A stretch of DNA of 64,000 nt. Origin: a bacterium. GTDB lineage: Bacteria > Patescibacteriota > Minisyncoccia > UBA6257 > JAGOQP01. Within the stretch, counting starts at the first letter, position 1. Each line of letters starts with the position of its first letter. The stretch lies in NCBI GenBank assembly GCA_021814695.1, contig JAKAHY010000003.1, forward strand, positions 20,692 to 84,691, read 5' to 3'. This document shows positions 3-51,526 of the stretch, piece by piece. The notes beneath the pieces are model-generated. The model searched no databases, was not told where the DNA came from, and saw nothing but the letters and a program-made list of their open reading frames with translations. A program made the translations under genes and the position numbers.

Positions 3-1997
3 CATTGCCAGGGGCTTGGAACAAAGCTTGAGATTGATTTGGATATTATTCTCGAGCCGACCTTATCGCTTGAAGCCGGCGCCATCAAGCCTCTTTTTTC
101 TTTGAGCCGAATGGCTCGGCGCGCATTGGGGGCCAACTGGCAGCATTTTGTGACAGAAACAATAGTCAGGGACCATGGTTATTCTCCCAAGACTAAATTC
201 GGGGATCTTTCCAAGGAGGTTCAGGATTTGATTCTTTACGGAAGCGGGGAAAATTATATTCAACTTCAAGACGGAGACTGGGAAGGAAAAACTCAGTTTG
301 AAGGAATTTTACCCAGATTGGAGAGGTTATACTACGAAACGGATTCGGATTTTATAAGGCAAGAACTCGGTAAATATATGCGCGAAGCAACTTGTCCGGT
401 TTGTCAGGGAGCCAGAGTAAAAAAAGAGTCGCTGGCGGTAAAAGTCGGGGGAAAAAACATCGCTGAAGTTGCCACGCTACCGGCCCAAAAACTTGTTAAT
501 TTTTGCCGTGCCGAAATATACAAGGGGATGTCCCAAAGCCAAAAATCGGTAGCCGAACCTATAATAAAAGAAATAATTACCAAAACTCAATTTCTCAATG
601 ATGTCGGTTTGGATTATATGACAATCAATCGTTCGGCAACGACGCTTTCGGTGGGTGAAAATCAACGCATTCGTTTGGCGACTCAGCTGGGGTCGGGGCT
701 TTCGGGAGTCATTTACGTTTTGGATGAGCCGACTATCGGTCTTCATCCGCAGGACACCGACAGGTTGATAAATACGTTAAAGACATTAAGAGACCTTCAA
801 AACACCGTTGTTGTTGTTGAACACGACGAAAGAGTTATCGCAGAATCGGATTGGGTGATAGAGATAGGTCCGGGAGCGGGAGAGGATGGGGGCAAGGTTG
901 TTTTTACCGGTACTCCCCAGGAACTTTTGAAATCAAAAACTTTGACCGGAATGTATTTATCGGGCAAAAAAACAACCGAATCCGGACTTGAAAAAAATCT
1001 GACCGACATCAAAGAAAAAGAATCCATTAAAATATTGGGAGCTTCCCAATTTAATCTTAAGGACGTCGATTTTAAGGTGCCGACAAAAAAGTTTGTCTGT
1101 GTTGCGGGAGTTTCGGGTTCGGGAAAAAGCACCTTGGTATTGGATGTATTTGCCAAAGCTCTGGAAAAAGAAGTTCTTAAATATCCGTCGGTACCGGGAG
1201 ATTACAAAAAACTTGAAGGCCAGGACAATATTAATAAGGTGATCGTTATAGACCAAAGCCCGATAGGAAGAACTCCGCGTTCCAATCCGGCCACATATAC
1301 CGGAATTTTTACTCCGATAAGATTGTTTTATTCCCATCTTGAGGAGGCGCAAATCCGCGGATATGGTCCGTCATATTTCAGTTTTAACGTTAAGCCTGGA
1401 AGGTGTGAAGCGTGCAGAGGCGAAGGATACAAAAAGGTAGAAATGTATTTTTTGCCGGATATGTACGTCGAGTGCGAGGTCTGTAAAGGAACCAGGTTTT
1501 CTCAGGAAGTTTTGGATGTTAAATATAAAGACAAGAGCATTGCCGATGTCTTAAATATGAGCGTCAAAGAAGCTTTGGGTTTTTTCGCATCATTCCCTCA
1601 GATTTCAGAAAAGATAAAAGTTCTAAACGAAATCGGTCTTGGATATATGAAACTGGGCCAACCGGCAACGACTTTGTCGGGAGGGGAAGCCCAAAGAATA
1701 AAATTAGCCGACGAGTTGGCTCGACGCTCGACGGGCAAAACTCTTTATGTTTTGGATGAGCCGACGGTGGGCTTGCATTTCGACGACGTTAAAAAACTTC
1801 TTTATATTTTGCGCTCGCTGGTGGTTAAAGGAAATACGGTTTTGGTAATTGAACACAACCTGGACGTATTGAAAGAGGCCGACTGGATTGTTGAGCTTGG
1901 TCCCGGGGGCGGAGAAAGCGGAGGTAAAATTGTTTTCGAGGGAACTCTGGACCAGATAAAAAAGAAAAAAACAACAACCGGAAAGTATTTGATATAA
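3..1997 (+). CDS. uvrA: Excinuclease ABC subunit UvrA (5'-truncated by window edge)
   Basis: Frame open from base 3 (HCQGLG...); Zn-finger CPVC/CEAC/CEVC; Walker A GVSGSGKST; signature LSGGEAQRIKLA; DQSPIGRTPRSNPATY motif typical of UvrA. Confidence 0.96.
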   Translation, partial: HCQGLGTKLEIDLDIILEPTLSLEAGAIKPLFSLSRMARRALGANWQHFVTETIVRDHGYSPKTKFGDLSKEVQDLILYGSGENYIQLQDGDWEGKTQFEGILPRLERLYYETDSDFIRQELGKYMREATCPVCQGARVKKESLAVKVGGKNIAEVATLPAQKLVNFCRAEIYKGMSQSQKSVAEPIIKEIITKTQFLNDVGLDYMTINRSATTLSVGENQRIRLATQLGSGLSGVIYVLDEPTIGLHPQDTDRLINTLKTLRDLQNTVVVVEHDERVIAESDWVIEIGPGAGEDGGKVVFTGTPQELLKSKTLTGMYLSGKKTTESGLEKNLTDIKEKESIKILGASQFNLKDVDFKVPTKKFVCVAGVSGSGKSTLVLDVFAKALEKEVLKYPSVPGDYKKLEGQDNINKVIVIDQSPIGRTPRSNPATYTGIFTPIRLFYSHLEEAQIRGYGPSYFSFNVKPGRCEACRGEGYKKVEMYFLPDMYVECEVCKGTRFSQEVLDVKYKDKSIADVLNMSVKEALGFFASFPQISEKIKVLNEIGLGYMKLGQPATTLSGGEAQRIKLADELARRSTGKTLYVLDEPTVGLHFDDVKKLLYILRSLVVKGNTVLVIEHNLDVLKEADWIVELGPGGGESGGKIVFEGTLDQIKKKKTTTGKYLI

Positions 1998-2062
1998 ATA
2001 GATATAAGATTGAGATAAAGTTGATATATTAAGAGAGGTTGTTGTGAAGTGAAGGTGTTTAT

Positions 2063-2099
2063 AAAAAAGAAGGGGAGCAGCGCGAAGCTGCTCCCTTTT
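2063..2099. terminator. Bidirectional intrinsic terminator
   Basis: A-tract, AAGGGGAGCAGC-GCGAA-GCTGCTCCCCTT, T-tract; lies between convergent uvrA and 2149..2607. Confidence 0.8.
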
Positions 2100-2148
2100 G
2101 AGACTGGCACGAATGTTTCGGGTTCTTGGTGTTGCGCTAACCCGGAGG

Positions 2149-2607
2149 TTAGCTGAGGAGGTCGATGATGCCGTTCAGCTCGGCCGCCTCGCTGTTGAGC
2201 TTGACCGCTTCCATCTGGAGCTCGGTTGCCTTGGCGTCTGCCTTGCCCTTGGTTTCGTTGACCTTGTAGCTGATCCTGTTGTGGATGGCTGCGATCTTGG
2301 CCTCCAGCCTGGAGATCTTAGCCTCCATCTTGAGGATCATCCGGTCGATAACGTCGCGGGCGCTCGAGAGAACATTGCGCGCCGCATCGTTCAGAGCATG
2401 AGCGCCGCTGACCTTGGCCTCGCGCTCGGACCGGGCCTCGTCAAGAGCGACGAAGTTGATGCCGGCGGACTCCAGGAAGTCCTGGAGATCCTGGACGGCG
2501 TCCTGCGACGCCACCCGACCGCGCGCTTCCCACCGCGTGAGAAGCTTGCGCAGCTCCTCGAGTCCGTACTTCGCCTTGAAAAGGTGAGACAGGGTTGTGA
2601 TCTTCAC
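2149..2607 (-). CDS. GC-rich helical/coiled-coil hypothetical protein
   Basis: GTG start with SD AAGGGAG; upstream TTGACT-16-TATAAT on the minus strand (~2710-2737); heptad-like C-terminus. Confidence 0.7.
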   Translation of the reverse strand: MKITTLSHLFKAKYGLEELRKLLTRWEARGRVASQDAVQDLQDFLESAGINFVALDEARSEREAKVSGAHALNDAARNVLSSARDVIDRMILKMEAKISRLEAKIAAIHNRISYKVNETKGKADAKATELQMEAVKLNSEAAELNGIIDLLS

Positions 2608-2738
2608 TGGCGACTCCCTTCGGTCCTTTGTGCCCCTTAGTTCTCCTCAAAACCAGAGATTGGGGCTGGTTTTCTTTTCGTGCCTTAGTGTACGATTATT
2701 ACGAATGAAATTATAAACTATTGTATAAAAAAGTCAAC

Positions 2739-2878
2739 CCCGCACCTTTGCTCAACTCAAGCTATCGCTTGAATTAGTATTTATAACCACCAAAGCTGTT
2801 GATTGTTTTAAATTGGGCCGATAGCTTCAGCTCTTACTATCAAAAATGGCCTATTATACAGTTGAGCAAAGGTGCGGG
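2739..2878. mobile_element. MITE-like element with 19-bp perfect terminal inverted repeats
   Basis: CCCGCACCTTTGCTCAACT ... AGTTGAGCAAAGGTGCGGG; related element at 55628-55760. Confidence 0.6.
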
Positions 2879-2977
2879 ATTAACCCCATTAGAAGCAGAT
2901 ATGCGCTGCGAGCACTTGCAGACTCTATCTGGATAAAGCATCTTAAAAAAGCATCTATTTTGATATAATTTAAAATA

Positions 2978-3196
2978 ATGAAAATAACCGTGATTGCTAA
3001 AGTCGGAAAAAAAGAAGAAAAGATTATCAAATTAAATAACTTGTTGTTTGAAGTCTGGACAAAAATGCCCGCCAAGGAAAACAAGGCCAACGAAGATATT
3101 ATTCGCCAGCTGGCCCAATATTTTAAAATTCCCAAATCCCGAATCAGCCTTTATCTCGGCAGAACTCAAAAAGAAAAAGTTTTTGAAATAAAATAA
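2978..3196 (+). CDS. DUF167/YggU family protein
   Basis: PAKENKANEDIIRQLAQYFKIPKSRI...G...KEK pattern; 72 aa. Confidence 0.8.
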   Translation: MKITVIAKVGKKEEKIIKLNNLLFEVWTKMPAKENKANEDIIRQLAQYFKIPKSRISLYLGRTQKEKVFEIK

Positions 3197-18482: not shown

Positions 18483-19706
18483 ATGGAAATATCGGAATTA
18501 TTACAAGAAGCATTTTCAGCCGTGACGCTCAATAAGGCGCGCTCGGGTTTGACGATTTTGGGTATAGTCATCGGAATCGGTTCGGTTATTGCCATGATCT
18601 CCATCGGCCAGGGGGCTCAGGGTTCCATTACTTCAAGTATTCAATCTATCGGCTCCAATCTTATTTTGATTACGCCCGGATTTCAGCGGACTCCCGGAAG
18701 CCAGGTGAGCGCCGGCCGCGGGAGTGCCGAAACTTTGCGTCAGGAAGACGCCGACGCCATCGCCAACCAGGTATCAATGATACAAGCAGTTGCTCCCGAA
18801 ATAACCCGTCGCTATCAGATTACGGCATTGGGTAAAAACACGAATACCTCCGTTGTCGGAACCGTTTCCAGTTATCCGGAAGTAAGAAACATTCAGATAG
18901 ATTTGGGAAATTTTATTACCGACCAAAACGTAAAGGACGGTTCCAAAGTGGCCGTGCTGGGTCCGACTACCCGGGACGATCTTTTCGGTACCGGCGTGGA
19001 CCCAACGGGAAAAACCATCCGTATTAATAATATAAATTTCCAGGTGGTCGGAGTTACCGTAGCTAAAGGTGGAAGCGGATTTGGGAGCCAGGATGATATG
19101 ATATTTGTTCCGATTTCAACGGCTCAAAGATATTTGGAAGGGGATACTTATGTAACCACAATCAGCGTCGAGGCGCAGGATGCGCAATCGATGACTCAAG
19201 TTCAGGATCAGATAACCAGCCTGCTTTTGGAAAGGCATCATATTTCCGATCCGACTCTGGCGGATTTTCAGGTATTAAACCAAACCGATATTCTTTCGAC
19301 GGCATCGACCATTACCAATACCTTCACTATTCTCTTGGCTTCAATTGCAGGAATTTCTTTGATTGTCGGAGGTATCGGAATCATGAATATGATGCTCACA
19401 ACCGTTACCGAGAGAACGCGTGAAATAGGATTAAGAAAAGCCATCGGCGCCAAGAAGCGGGATATCAGCACTCAGTTTCTGATAGAGTCGGTGATGCTGA
19501 CTTTCTTGGGTGGTATAGTGGGAATTATATTAGGCTGGATGCTTTCAATGCTGGTAACTTATTTTGCGGGTATTACCACGAGTATTTCCTGGTGGTCAAT
19601 TCTGCTGGCATTTGGAGTGTCGGCCGGAATCGGAATCGTATTCGGATATTATCCGGCCCGTCGTGCGGCCTCTCTTAATCCGATAGAAGCTTTGAGATAC
19701 GAATAA
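18483..19706 (+). CDS. MacB/FtsX-type ABC permease
   Basis: LTILGIVIGI, VGGIGIMN, ERTREIG, PIEALRYE. Confidence 0.93.
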   Translation: MEISELLQEAFSAVTLNKARSGLTILGIVIGIGSVIAMISIGQGAQGSITSSIQSIGSNLILITPGFQRTPGSQVSAGRGSAETLRQEDADAIANQVSMIQAVAPEITRRYQITALGKNTNTSVVGTVSSYPEVRNIQIDLGNFITDQNVKDGSKVAVLGPTTRDDLFGTGVDPTGKTIRINNINFQVVGVTVAKGGSGFGSQDDMIFVPISTAQRYLEGDTYVTTISVEAQDAQSMTQVQDQITSLLLERHHISDPTLADFQVLNQTDILSTASTITNTFTILLASIAGISLIVGGIGIMNMMLTTVTERTREIGLRKAIGAKKRDISTQFLIESVMLTFLGGIVGIILGWMLSMLVTYFAGITTSISWWSILLAFGVSAGIGIVFGYYPARRAASLNPIEALRYE

Positions 19707-24313: not shown

Positions 24314-24450
24314 TTCCGGCCTCCTTTTGAAGTTCTAAACTGTTTAAAGTATAGCATAAAATTAAGATTTGTCAATAAGGTGTGATTAATTACTATTAAC
24401 TGTTTACTATTAACTGATTACTTGTTATCATTCAATTACAACTTAATAGA

Positions 24451-24591
24451 AGTTATCAAGAGTGGCGGGGAGGGAATTGGCCCCATGATCCGCCCAGCAA
24501 CTTGTCTTAGGTCTCGACGCTTAGGATAAAGTGCTAAATCCAATCCCCGAAGGCGTACTCGTCCTGAGCTCGCCGAAGGAGAGAGATAAGG
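24451..24591 (+). promoter_or_regulatory. SAM-I (S-box) riboswitch aptamer
   Basis: TTATCAAGAG..GGGAGGGAATTGGCCCCATGA..CAGCAAC..GTGCTAAATCC..GAGATAAG; upstream of metK. Confidence 0.88.
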
Positions 24592-24613
24592 TAGGTCGAT
24601 TTTTAATGCCTTT

Positions 24614-46728: not shown

Positions 46729-46790
46729 TGCGCTTATTCCGGATTCTTGTGTGTATTGACAATTATATTTATATATGATATACTAACATC

Positions 46791-47121
46791 GTTGTACACT
46801 TAATAATGTCTAAGGTGTGTTCGGGGAGGCGCATATCGCGACGAAGCGTAATGTGCCAAACCGGACACCTCCAAAGGCGCTTCGAGCGCCAGACAGTGGA
46901 CCGATGGTCCACACGGGGCGGCTAGTGCTGCTCCACGAGTCCGGCCGTCAAGAATCGGTAATATCCGGCGGCATCAAGCGGATCAACCCGAAAACCACGG
47001 CTCGACTCCAAACACCCGGGGTAGCGCCCATGCATGCCAACCGCGGCTAAGTCCGCAACCGGCTCATAGGGTAATGCGCCCCACTCCAACAACAGGACGT
47101 TTCTTCGGAAACGTCCTTTTT
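46791..47121 (+). ncRNA. Candidate structured ncRNA (~330 nt)
   Basis: TTGACA-17-TATACT (46756-46784); GC-rich run of hairpins; terminator AGGACGTTTC-TTCG-GAAACGTCCT-TTTT; no SD-led ORF. Confidence 0.6.
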
Positions 47122-49785: not shown

Positions 49786-49835
49786 GTTTTTTATTGCTTT
49801 TAATCATAAACAAATGCTGCCAAAGTCGGCAGCTA

Positions 49836-50046
49836 TTTTTATCACCCTTTGTTCCGGCAAAGGGTGATACCTAAACCGGCAAGTTTTATATATTCTCTCA
49901 ATTAAATCAAAACAAATATTTCGCTTTATCTTGAACTCGTCCTCACTTTGTTCGGACTCAAACAATCAAGACAATTCTCACTTTTTATGAAAAGTGAAAA
50001 ATCGCTTATATTTGCTTGATTTAATTATGCTCGCATATATAACTTG
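49836..50046. repeat. Structured repeat family, copy 3
   Basis: TATCACCCTTTG/CAAAGGGTGATA hairpin; long stem capped by AACTCG...CTCAAACA. Confidence 0.55.
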
Positions 50047-50215
50047 ATTGATAAGATGAGAGAGCAGAAACCAGTTTTTTAATACAAAAAAGCGCCTAAT
50101 TTTTCGGCGCATCACCTTTCACAATCAAAGATCGTTCGTTGCAATTCAAAAAGAGGCCATATTTGCCGATTCTTGTAAGGCTTGACAAATATATTCATTA
50201 TGCTATAATGCACTC

Positions 50216-50993
50216 GTATTGAAAATCAAATAAAAGGAGGGAGGTGAGTGGAGGCGCAAAAAAGCGCCAGCGTCCGAAACAACAACCGCTACTCGTCGAC
50301 CGCTAACCGACATCGTGTCGGTTCTCAGGGCCCGGACCGAAATCTTGCCCGTGGCCAGAGCCGATTATGACTACTGACCAATTGGTCAGAGTCAATCATG
50401 GCTTTTGGCCCAAGGCGGGGATTTGCGGCAAAGGGGTCCCGAACGCGGTAGTAAAGTCCATGGAGGGCACAATGCTTTAGACTAAGGCCTAAGGCCCAAT
50501 CCGACGACAGACGATCCGCCGAGCCTCCAAGCGCGCAAGGGGTGCGCGCTACTACATAAATGACCCCACGGAAAAAAACGTGAGCGGAGGAAAACACCGG
50601 ACCACCATCTGGCACAGAGTAAAGGACTCTGGATAGCCGGCAAACCGCCGCGCCCCAAGTTAAGACGACGAAGCGGCACAGGGGCGTGGCACGAGAGACG
50701 ACGGAGGAGCCACGAATGCATACACTCCGTAGACTCAACTCATAGAGGGATGAAGCGGCGCCTCTATGAGTAGCTGTCCGAACCCGGGAACGACAGGTTT
50801 CCCAGGGCGTGACGCCGCCGGTTAGGGAGAAGACGGAGCGCTCTCCCGCGTAAAAAATGCTCCAAAAGTACTTTGTGCCCCGGGGATAAATGGGCCAAAC
50901 CCTGGGTGGAACAGGCCTCGTAAGCGCGACCGCGTAAGTGTCCCGCAACCGGGAGCGTCCAGCAAGCAGTACGGACGCTCCTTTTTCTTTTTT
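50216..50993 (+). ncRNA. Candidate large structured ncRNA (~770 nt)
   Basis: TTGACA-16-TATAAT with extended TG (50182-50209); more than 10 GC-rich hairpins with A-rich linkers; terminator GGAGCGTCC/GGACGCTCC-TTTTT; no sense ORF of 60 aa or more. Confidence 0.65.
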
Positions 50994-51034
50994 AAATATT
51001 CACTAATATTTTTTTATAATGATATAATTAGCTT

Positions 51035-51526
51035 ATGAGGAAATTGAGCTACATTATTATTCCGCTGATTGCTTTGGCTACCGCTTTATCCGGAGGATGG
51101 TTTACCGGAAAGGGAATGAGTTGGTATAAAACAATAAATCTTCCCGATTGGACTCCGCCGGGAAGCGTTATAGGATTTGTTTGGACGGTTATTTTTATAT
51201 TGACGGCAATTTCCGCGATTATCGTTTGGAATAAATCCGAAAGGACAAAAAAATTCAAATGGGTCGTGGCTCTTTTTATAGTTAACATTTTTCTTAATGT
51301 CGGATGGAGCTTGGTATTTTTCTTTCAGCATCAGATCGGAGCGGCCGTTATGGATGCGTTTGCTCTCTGGCTCTCGGTGCTTCTTTTGATTCTTTATATG
51401 CGCATAATGGCTCATCAACAGGGAAAGATGGCGCTGTATTGGGCTTACATCGCATTGCTGCCGTATTTGATTTGGACAACTTTTGCCACATATCTGACCT
51501 ATGCCGTGTGGTTGTTAAACAAATAA
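51035..51526 (+). CDS. tspO: TspO/MBR tryptophan-rich sensory protein
   Basis: WY..INLPDWTPP...G.VWT, LN..WS.VFF, LPYL.W..FATYL. Confidence 0.9.
   Translation: MRKLSYIIIPLIALATALSGGWFTGKGMSWYKTINLPDWTPPGSVIGFVWTVIFILTAISAIIVWNKSERTKKFKWVVALFIVNIFLNVGWSLVFFFQHQIGAAVMDAFALWLSVLLLILYMRIMAHQQGKMALYWAYIALLPYLIWTTFATYLTYAVWLLNK

Follow-up and report, generated by a model that had tools for sequence, protein, structure and literature searches.

A likely uncatalogued, fast-evolving large non-coding RNA gene in a patescibacterial genome

Analysis of a 64,000-nucleotide stretch of a patescibacterial genome (the window, to which positions without a contig name refer) points to what is likely an uncatalogued, fast-evolving and narrowly distributed gene for a large non-coding RNA, with a conserved core in close relatives. 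That this RNA unit is a real, functional non-coding RNA we consider probable. The best explanation taken whole, a stand-alone RNA of ~775 nt and two domains acting as a scaffold or decoy, is offered tentatively and falls somewhat short of probable; action as a scaffold or decoy for a protein or for the RNA itself, which is argued from analogy, is possible but open to doubt. The features discussed below are the following.

50182-50209, + strand: sigma70 promoter with extended -10 element (-35 TTGACA at 50182-87, 16-nt spacer, TG-n-TATAAT at 50201-09)
50216-50993, + strand: predicted non-coding transcript of ~775 nt, its start placed from the -10 box
50216-50252, + strand: A-rich leader and SD-like purine tract (AAGGAGG at 50234-40, GGAGGUGA at 50240-47)
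50240-50528, + strand: predicted 5' multibranch domain (helix probabilities 0.6-1.0)
50248-50370, + strand: frame of 40 codons from a GTG, judged probably not a gene
50445-50584, + strand: conserved block A, with an 8-bp hairpin at 50530-50, seen in relatives' contigs; limits from depth arithmetic
50587-50920, + strand: predicted 3' multibranch domain; middle part (50585-50851) diverged in a relative
50852-50950, + strand: conserved block B, seen in relatives' contigs, with a GUAA-capped hairpin (50924-46) and then an AACC linker at its 3' end
50951-50993, + strand: terminator-like intrinsic hairpin and U-tract (-18.4 kcal/mol)
50948-50325, - strand: antisense ORF of 207 codons with an NCBI protein entry, regarded here as a shadow frame
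51020-51526, + strand: tspO gene, downstream context, with its own extended -10 at 51020-28 and ATG at 51035

The promoter scores 12 out of 12, the only site to do so among 14 promoter-like sites between 46500 and 52000. In the terminator, a GC stem of 10 bp (50951-60/50973-82) has a pair probability of 0.98, and a U-tract then extends to 50993; the hairpin loop of 12 nt is over the limit of the terminator scanner, and the terminator is therefore absent from the scanner's list. GC content is 0.53-0.60 within the unit versus 0.32-0.44 in the flanks. A preliminary description had claimed a consensus promoter, a GC-rich terminator and a GC content above that of the flanks, and also seven stems, the absence of any sense ORF of at least 60 aa, and an AAGGAGG at the 5' end that leads only to frames of 20 or 40 codons; the promoter, the terminator, the stems and the short frames were all found where it had placed them, apart from the last stem, which ends at 50847 rather than 50846, and the ORF listing holds no sense frame of that length. 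The unit occurs once in the genome. Upstream of the promoter, the spacer at 49816-50180 is AT-rich with several hairpins, and two pieces of it match other contigs (C5, 77% over 75 nt; C10, 79% over 57 nt).

Downstream, the gap from the end of the terminator to tspO is 42 nt, and the extended -10 of tspO stands six bases 5' of its ATG; the tspO transcript is probably leaderless and separate from the RNA unit. The promoter, the terminator and the extended -10 of tspO together indicate that the unit stands alone: its consensus promoter would drive constitutive, high expression of a ~775-nt RNA, and transcription would end at the terminator hairpin to give a stand-alone transcript. The same terminator could serve instead in an attenuator or riboswitch-like leader, in which a helix of 50811-19 with 50951-59 would block termination and allow read-through into tspO, a DUF488 gene and an ABC transporter. 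This helix, which excludes the helix 50634-41/50817-24, reaches a probability of 0.96-0.99 in the fragment 50790-50972, and the short distance to tspO is matched by an adjacency of the unit and tspO that is kept in relatives' contigs. Its probability is 0.18 in the whole nascent transcript, however; the extended -10 of tspO is placed for a leaderless start, tspO homologs in two other genomes (G002 and G005) have no such leader, and the adjacency is not special because other neighbouring genes are also syntenic in the relatives. We regard regulated read-through as quite improbable.

The genome (748 kb in 16 contigs, 99% complete) contains GC-rich protein genes that have strong promoters, A-rich leaders, purine boxes and terminators like those of the RNA unit, and four of these genes fold at z scores of -3.4, -3.9, -4.5 and -12.9 against dinucleotide shuffles; GC content and z score alone therefore do not decide the nature of the unit. 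Thus, of the original proposal of an undescribed large non-coding RNA, the reading itself is retained as the best one, but the GC content, promoter, terminator and folding on which it drew are common to GC-rich protein genes. What sets the unit apart from these genes is the missing coding signal. In six frames, no 25-codon window rises above +0.1 on a codon model trained on eight GC-rich genes, whose own scores of +0.35 to +0.76 are training-set scores, and the unit has no residual codon periodicity. It is this lack of codon signal in any frame, together with frame-breaking indels in relatives (below), that argues for non-coding status. Compared with the SD-led GC-rich cassettes, then, the unit has the same promoter, A-rich leader, SD-like box, folded GC-rich body, terminator and variable slots but no codon-biased ORF, and would be their non-coding counterpart. 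Among the GC-rich genes themselves, six gave z scores of -0.5 to -3.8 against synonymous shuffles; an ORF of 247 codons at 43954 of contig C14 (+ strand, GC3 0.96) has z scores of -12.9 against dinucleotide and -3.8 against synonymous shuffles, and mRNA structure may be selected in GC-rich cassette genes. An orphan gene running from 2737 to ~2050 on the - strand (23428 of contig C9) is likewise GC-rich and SD-led, with a coiled-coil-like product of 152 aa and its own consensus promoter and terminator.

The shared layout would also be explained if the unit were an mRNA of the SD-led GC-rich cassette class, with the 40-codon frame translated and the folded tail stabilizing or gating the message. 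AAGGAGG lies 7 nt before the GTG at 50248 and is predicted to be partly open in nascent transcripts, and SD-like boxes precede 8 of the 29 ORFs in the genome with GC3 above 0.55 versus 37 of the 573 below. Yet the frame has no codon bias (GC 0.61/0.56/0.61 at the three codon positions; codon score not above that of other frames) and no Pfam match, its peptide is absent from the protein collection, and its GTG is predicted to be paired at every transcript length tested (unpaired probability 0.19 or less). The region of the frame does not align in a relative's contig in which the downstream non-coding blocks do, and the 3' end of the 16S rRNA (contig C8, ~1126-1180) is without an anti-SD sequence, so that the AAGGAGG at 50234 is not readable by ordinary pairing. 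The 40-codon frame is probably not a gene, and we consider translation of the unit as an mRNA unlikely. Slippage into the -1 frame on the A6G sequence (50258-64) was rejected, leading only to a short frame without codon support, as was a type I toxin-antitoxin system, the peptide being hydrophilic and no antisense unit being present; long antisense targets of the unit were also sought, and only scattered 13-nt matches were obtained.

Two ORFs lie antisense to the unit, one of 207 aa (50948-50325) and the other of 79 aa, and neither figured in the preliminary description. The larger belongs to a stop-free run of 221 codons that is reached in ~1% of 5000 shuffles, and NCBI has entered its product as a protein; if it were a real gene, the plus-strand signals would be incidental. 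Against this, the protein is a singleton in the protein collection (NCBI source), without a Pfam match and with an Atlas recognition of 869 (best score 0.76). It had one weak, repeat-like match, to an insect protein, and no other homolog among 1.84 billion representatives, and no homolog of near or shorter length in a set of 5.8 billion. The GC content of its codon positions is flat (0.59/0.59/0.58 versus 0.62/0.37/0.84 in a GC-rich gene of the same genome), the indels in a relative shift its frame, and the minus strand has no strong promoter or fitting terminator. Codon bias, homologs and a kept frame, by which a protein-coding gene would be recognized, are all missing here. We judge the ORF to be a shadow frame, its reality as a gene being extremely unlikely, and the NCBI annotation is corrected accordingly: the 207-aa protein entered at this locus is probably not real.

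Evidence of homologs comes entirely from four DNA runs of one mine-drainage study, possibly the source of the window itself, in which the stretch containing the RNA unit is present. Relatives' contigs from these runs were aligned to the window at 80% likeness, and alignment tables only were used. In the first contig (depth 7.4 in run X1 and 8.5 in X2), a 31-nt promoter piece (~50181-50211) aligns, the next 233 bases (50212-50444) do not align at 80% or more, and alignment resumes at 50445. Four indels follow within 45 nt of block A, at 50482 (-1), 50508 (+1), 50514 (+2) and 50526 (+2), for a net shift of +4; in the predicted fold the first falls in a loop, the second and third at helix edges and the fourth inside a helix. 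The second contig aligns at ~50527-50584 and, after an interruption, from 50852 onward past the terminator and into tspO; this latter part contains 55 substitutions and 8 gaps. Between 50584 and 50852 the contig has, by arithmetic, ~236 letters versus 267 in the window. A third contig (depth 3.1), in which 50567 is linked to position 51137 in tspO, may represent a further relative. Depths agree with these block limits (957 observed and 957 predicted in one bin, 386 versus 392 in another), and the bin upstream of the promoter (49996-50179) gains no depth from relatives in any run.

Over more than half of its length the RNA unit is thus unalignable at 80% in these relatives, the neighbouring genes of which are ~85% identical (those genes differ at ~15% of sites in these runs, for example 60 of 401). 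Blocks A and B align at 80% or more, and are therefore kept about as well as the neighbouring genes. The unit is accordingly a conserved core, formed by the two blocks, with a faster-changing, variable periphery. Homologs that conserved a reading frame, named at the outset as evidence that would count against a structured RNA, are not what these contigs provide: the relatives keep blocks, and their indels break the frames.

Beyond these runs no homolog was found in the collections searched. The RNA unit as DNA had no match in 60 relatives or in 19 genomes of the family. BLAST searches of samples of GTDB genomes, which overlap, gave nine short matches (19-29 nt) in 400 genomes of the class, two in 400 genomes of the order searched with block A and one in 400 genomes of the phylum; none could be extended, and the short matches inspected are coding DNA or SD leaders. 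A single-sequence RNA model (R1) matched one of 150 relatives, inside a coding gene that we take to be ruvC and with its pairs broken, and a second model (R2) matched none of 150. Phage and plasmid collections contained no homolog of the unit, and seven viral scans returned six loci, none extending into one. Protein-led scans of metagenomes and genomes returned seven TspO loci (29-52% identity), none with the RNA unit; these blanks are weak because the known relatives with TspO at 83-85% identity, although they carry the exact search words, escaped the TspO-led scans. The proposed collection of homologs therefore succeeded in part, with diverged blocks in metagenome relatives and none in the GTDB genome samples. 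To judge from these comparisons of sequence, the unit has the appearance of an accessory element that belongs to a narrow lineage and evolves fast.

The RNA unit lies in a shuffled accessory gene cluster, with neighbours that include a metallophosphoesterase and TspO. In the same-genus genome G002 the neighbourhood of peptidase, tspO, cupin and metallophosphoesterase is present without the RNA insert, and inspection of loci in G001 and in G005 likewise showed no RNA unit. In all, the unit is missing from this position in two genomes of the same genus. Two paralogous genes of the DUF84/NTPase_I-T family (PF01931; 45192-45785 and 54007-54549) bracket the accessory cluster together with the RNA unit and a second unit described below. 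Patchy presence, with the unit missing at the matching same-genus locus and from 19 of 19 family genomes, is what would be expected of a selfish or vestigial cassette with a fold that has no function for the host, whether it began as a GC-rich gene that has since decayed or is a mobile element of the non-autonomous kind. The shuffled cluster, three reverse transcriptases in the genome, dispersed repeat pieces just upstream and a possibly related smaller unit 3.4 kb away are consistent with this. However, the unit is single-copy, the scanned neighbours include no transposase, integrase or reverse transcriptase, and the unit has no group II D5/D6 or intron family match and is not the template of a diversity-generating retroelement (DGR). 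A decayed gene might have left residual codon periodicity, and none is seen; the perfect promoter, moreover, is kept in a relative. A selfish or vestigial origin is rather unlikely in our estimation, and the RNA that we prefer would have an accessory, non-essential role in the cell.

The folding of the unit against shuffles, proposed at the outset as a check, gave a z score of -5.6 (20 shuffles), unchanged without the terminator, with the caveat that GC-rich protein genes of the same genome also fold strongly. This value is in the range of the genome's own RNase P RNA (-5.3) and tmRNA (-4.1). The minus strand folds equally well (-5.4, 20 shuffles), which counts against the best explanation. 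The unit contains 10 perfect hairpins of at least 6 bp versus 4.1 +/- 2.2 in shuffles (P=0.02), and all of the stems named in the preliminary description have high pair probability in single-sequence prediction. In the predicted fold, A makes up 88 of the 163 bases of unpaired stretches and G or C occupies 320 of the 455 paired positions.

Two multibranch domains are predicted for the candidate RNA. The 5' domain (50240-50528, z -5.7) comprises two short hairpins and an irregular hairpin of 110 nt (50328-50439) in this single-sequence prediction, and the tip of the latter is a perfect palindrome of 16 nt (50374-89) with the loop AAUU. The conserved 8-bp hairpin at 50530-50 and then an A-rich linker stand between the domains. 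In the 3' domain (z -3.9; -5.2 for 50634-50824), predicted helices 50611-21/50869-79 and 50634-41/50817-24 lead to a multiway junction with hairpins at 50647-90, 50701-30, 50738-71 and 50825-47 of 10, 6, 11 and 6 bp, respectively. The purine tract of the leader is predicted to pair with 50515-28 and the terminator tail (probabilities 0.91-0.95), and AAGGAGG is predicted to be unpaired with a probability of 0.06 once the transcript is complete and of 0.5-0.8 in shorter, nascent transcripts; the 5' SD-like tract would thus be sequestered by long-range pairing in the model. The RNA would stay untranslated, its SD-like tract hidden, and would fold compactly into its two domains and act through its shape. 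Palindromes are not enriched in the unit (16 versus 11.9, P=0.14), and none of its predicted unpaired segments is complementary to another over 5 nt or more. The loop word GAYGRAGCG, which has three copies in the unit and four in the window, was discarded after a fair test (P 0.17-1.0). A pseudoknot that would tie block A to block B (50443-49/50929-35 and 50465-72/50873-80) is kept as a bare possibility at most; it has a pair probability of ~0 in the nested ensemble and is by estimate no more than chance expectation.

Rfam 15, which includes OLE, ROOL, GOLLD, raiA and LOOT, contains no credible match to the RNA unit, and the claim of novelty withstood this check. The single above-threshold match in the window is a SAM riboswitch at 24450, and the best matches within the unit at E values up to 10 score 13-23 bits, far under the cut-offs. 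The riboswitch (SAM-I, 24450-24592, 49.2 bits, above the Rfam cut-off) precedes a GC-rich gene. No RNase P, tmRNA or intron signature is present in the unit, as had been claimed. The sole RNase P match (RF00010) in the genome lies behind its own promoter on contig C3 (30291-30747); at 39 bits versus a cut-off of 100, this RNA appears to carry long insertions. A P4-like pairing within the unit (50394-401/50454-62) was rejected, its order being reversed with respect to CR-I then CR-V and its strands lying inside other helices. The tmRNA (RF00023, ARAGORN) is on contig C7 (114.6 bits), with none in the window. Searches for 6S RNA (RF00013) and small SRP RNA (RF00169) found no match genome-wide at E values up to 1, the 6S search being weak, since its control was detected in 5 of 14 known genomes; group II intron D5/D6 (RF00029) had no match in the genome (control 5 of 14), and no Rfam intron family was found in the region of the unit. 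A role as a DGR template was rejected, the best adenine-blind score being 16.5 versus 17.6 for a shuffled query; the DGR on contig C5 has its own template.

CsrB and RsmZ are stand-alone RNAs that act as protein sponges, with several hairpins and many GGA loop motifs. The unit resembles them in standing alone and in having several hairpins and loops rich in purines, but GGA is not clearly enriched in it (22 versus 18.5) and its loop word is not significant; CsrA was not found in the genome (control 3 of 14). OLE has an OapA-type partner protein, whereas the neighbours of the candidate are the metallophosphoesterase and TspO. Both are large stand-alone RNAs, and the longest predicted hairpin of the candidate also has a palindromic loop; in the part of PMC12286853 drawn on here, OLE and GOLLD monomers are described as joining through palindromic kissing loops, and of the kissing loops by which OLE dimerizes one is palindromic. 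The unit differs from OLE in having no Rfam match and in being far less conserved. ROOL averages 581 nt and many GOLLD RNAs exceed 800 nt, according to the portions of PMC5737381 and PMC12286853 used. As far as these sources go, the unit resembles ROOL and GOLLD in size class, multibranch fold, accessory occurrence and the lack of a known protein partner; unlike them it has no Rfam match, lies far from tRNA genes (the one tRNA of the window is 40 kb off), is absent from the phage collections searched and is found only in close kin. It also changes faster than is described for OLE, ROOL and GOLLD. With HYER and the ORF-less group IIC and group I introns, as presented in sections of PMC12990946, the unit shares the lack of an ORF, a length of several hundred nucleotides and GC-rich helices, but it has its own promoter and terminator and interrupts no gene.

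The unit has the characteristics of the large, ornate non-coding RNAs: it stands alone, exceeds 500 nt, contains no ORF and has a multistem fold in single-sequence prediction. By analogy, the folded RNA might serve a protein as scaffold or sink, or might form a self-assembling particle, in the manner of OLE, ROOL and GOLLD, which are described as acting in this way, by shape, in passages of PMC12286853 and PMC12990946. Large bacterial non-coding RNAs with complex folds are rare and often of unusual biochemistry, to follow the relevant part of PMC5737381. A search of the titles and abstract openings of openly accessible papers found no large non-coding RNA from Patescibacteria; the 224 motifs in the supplement of PMC5737381 could bear on the novelty of the unit. 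A perfect promoter for an RNA of 775 nt is kept in a genome of 748 kb, which suggests that the RNA matters to the organism, and because the candidate can be made in vitro, probing and cryo-EM are feasible without culturing it.

A second GC-rich unit running from promoter to terminator (46756-47121; ~330 nt, z -5.3, no codon signal) lies 3.4 kb upstream of the RNA unit and is kept, with indels, in a relative. Its 3' part resembles the last 60 nt before the terminator of the RNA unit, in block B, and a CACCUCC precedes a GC hairpin within the second unit. The similarity of the 3' ends has P=0.001, the ends having been chosen after the match was seen, and P=0.17 over the full length; on these alignments the second unit may be a distant paralog. 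The shared 3' motif occurred in 4 of 140 genomes, always in long ORFs, versus 15 matches of a reversed-pattern control, and the second unit had two short matches in 250 genomes of the order, neither an extended homolog. A 23-nt match to it at ~1500 of locus L045 (G631:C2) falls immediately 5' of the terminator of a GC-rich minigene, within the 3' untranslated region; similar AC-rich words occur after the stop codons of several cassettes.

The CACCUCC that precedes a similar hairpin in the second unit bears on a further possibility, that the RNA unit acts by SD pairing, either as a decoy for the ribosomes of an anti-SD-bearing host or, through CCUCC, as a helper in trans for the SD-led genes of the organism itself. 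The 16S rRNA has no anti-SD and uL1 was not found in the genome, a combination that recalls the Parcubacteria subgroup, mostly lacking uL1, for which anti-SD loss is reported in the part of PMC9297842 consulted; the RNA begins with a triple SD-like tract, and a CCUCC (50524-28) lies inside conserved block A. Chance alone would be expected to place a CCUCC in a GC-rich sequence of 775 bases, however; the tract and the CCUCC are predicted to pair with each other, and the +2 insertion of the relative falls within the CCUCC. We hold an SD-pairing role to be very unlikely, and grade no higher the broader view that the RNA, large, folded and protected at its ends, is a non-coding member of the SD-led cassettes, forming a new family with the second unit and serving as an SD decoy for a host bacterium or as an anti-SD in trans.

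The reverse transcriptases of the genome lie on other contigs. Contig C5 (16100-20100) carries an apparent DGR. It comprises two GC-rich target genes, nearly identical at their 3' ends, together with a template rich in AAC and, at 19023, a reverse transcriptase. On contig C14, a reverse transcriptase follows a non-coding stretch and a small HTH-like gene at ~1400-3100, in a retron-like layout, and another, at 62300-64062, stands at the contig end beside a gene with a DGR-like C-terminus.
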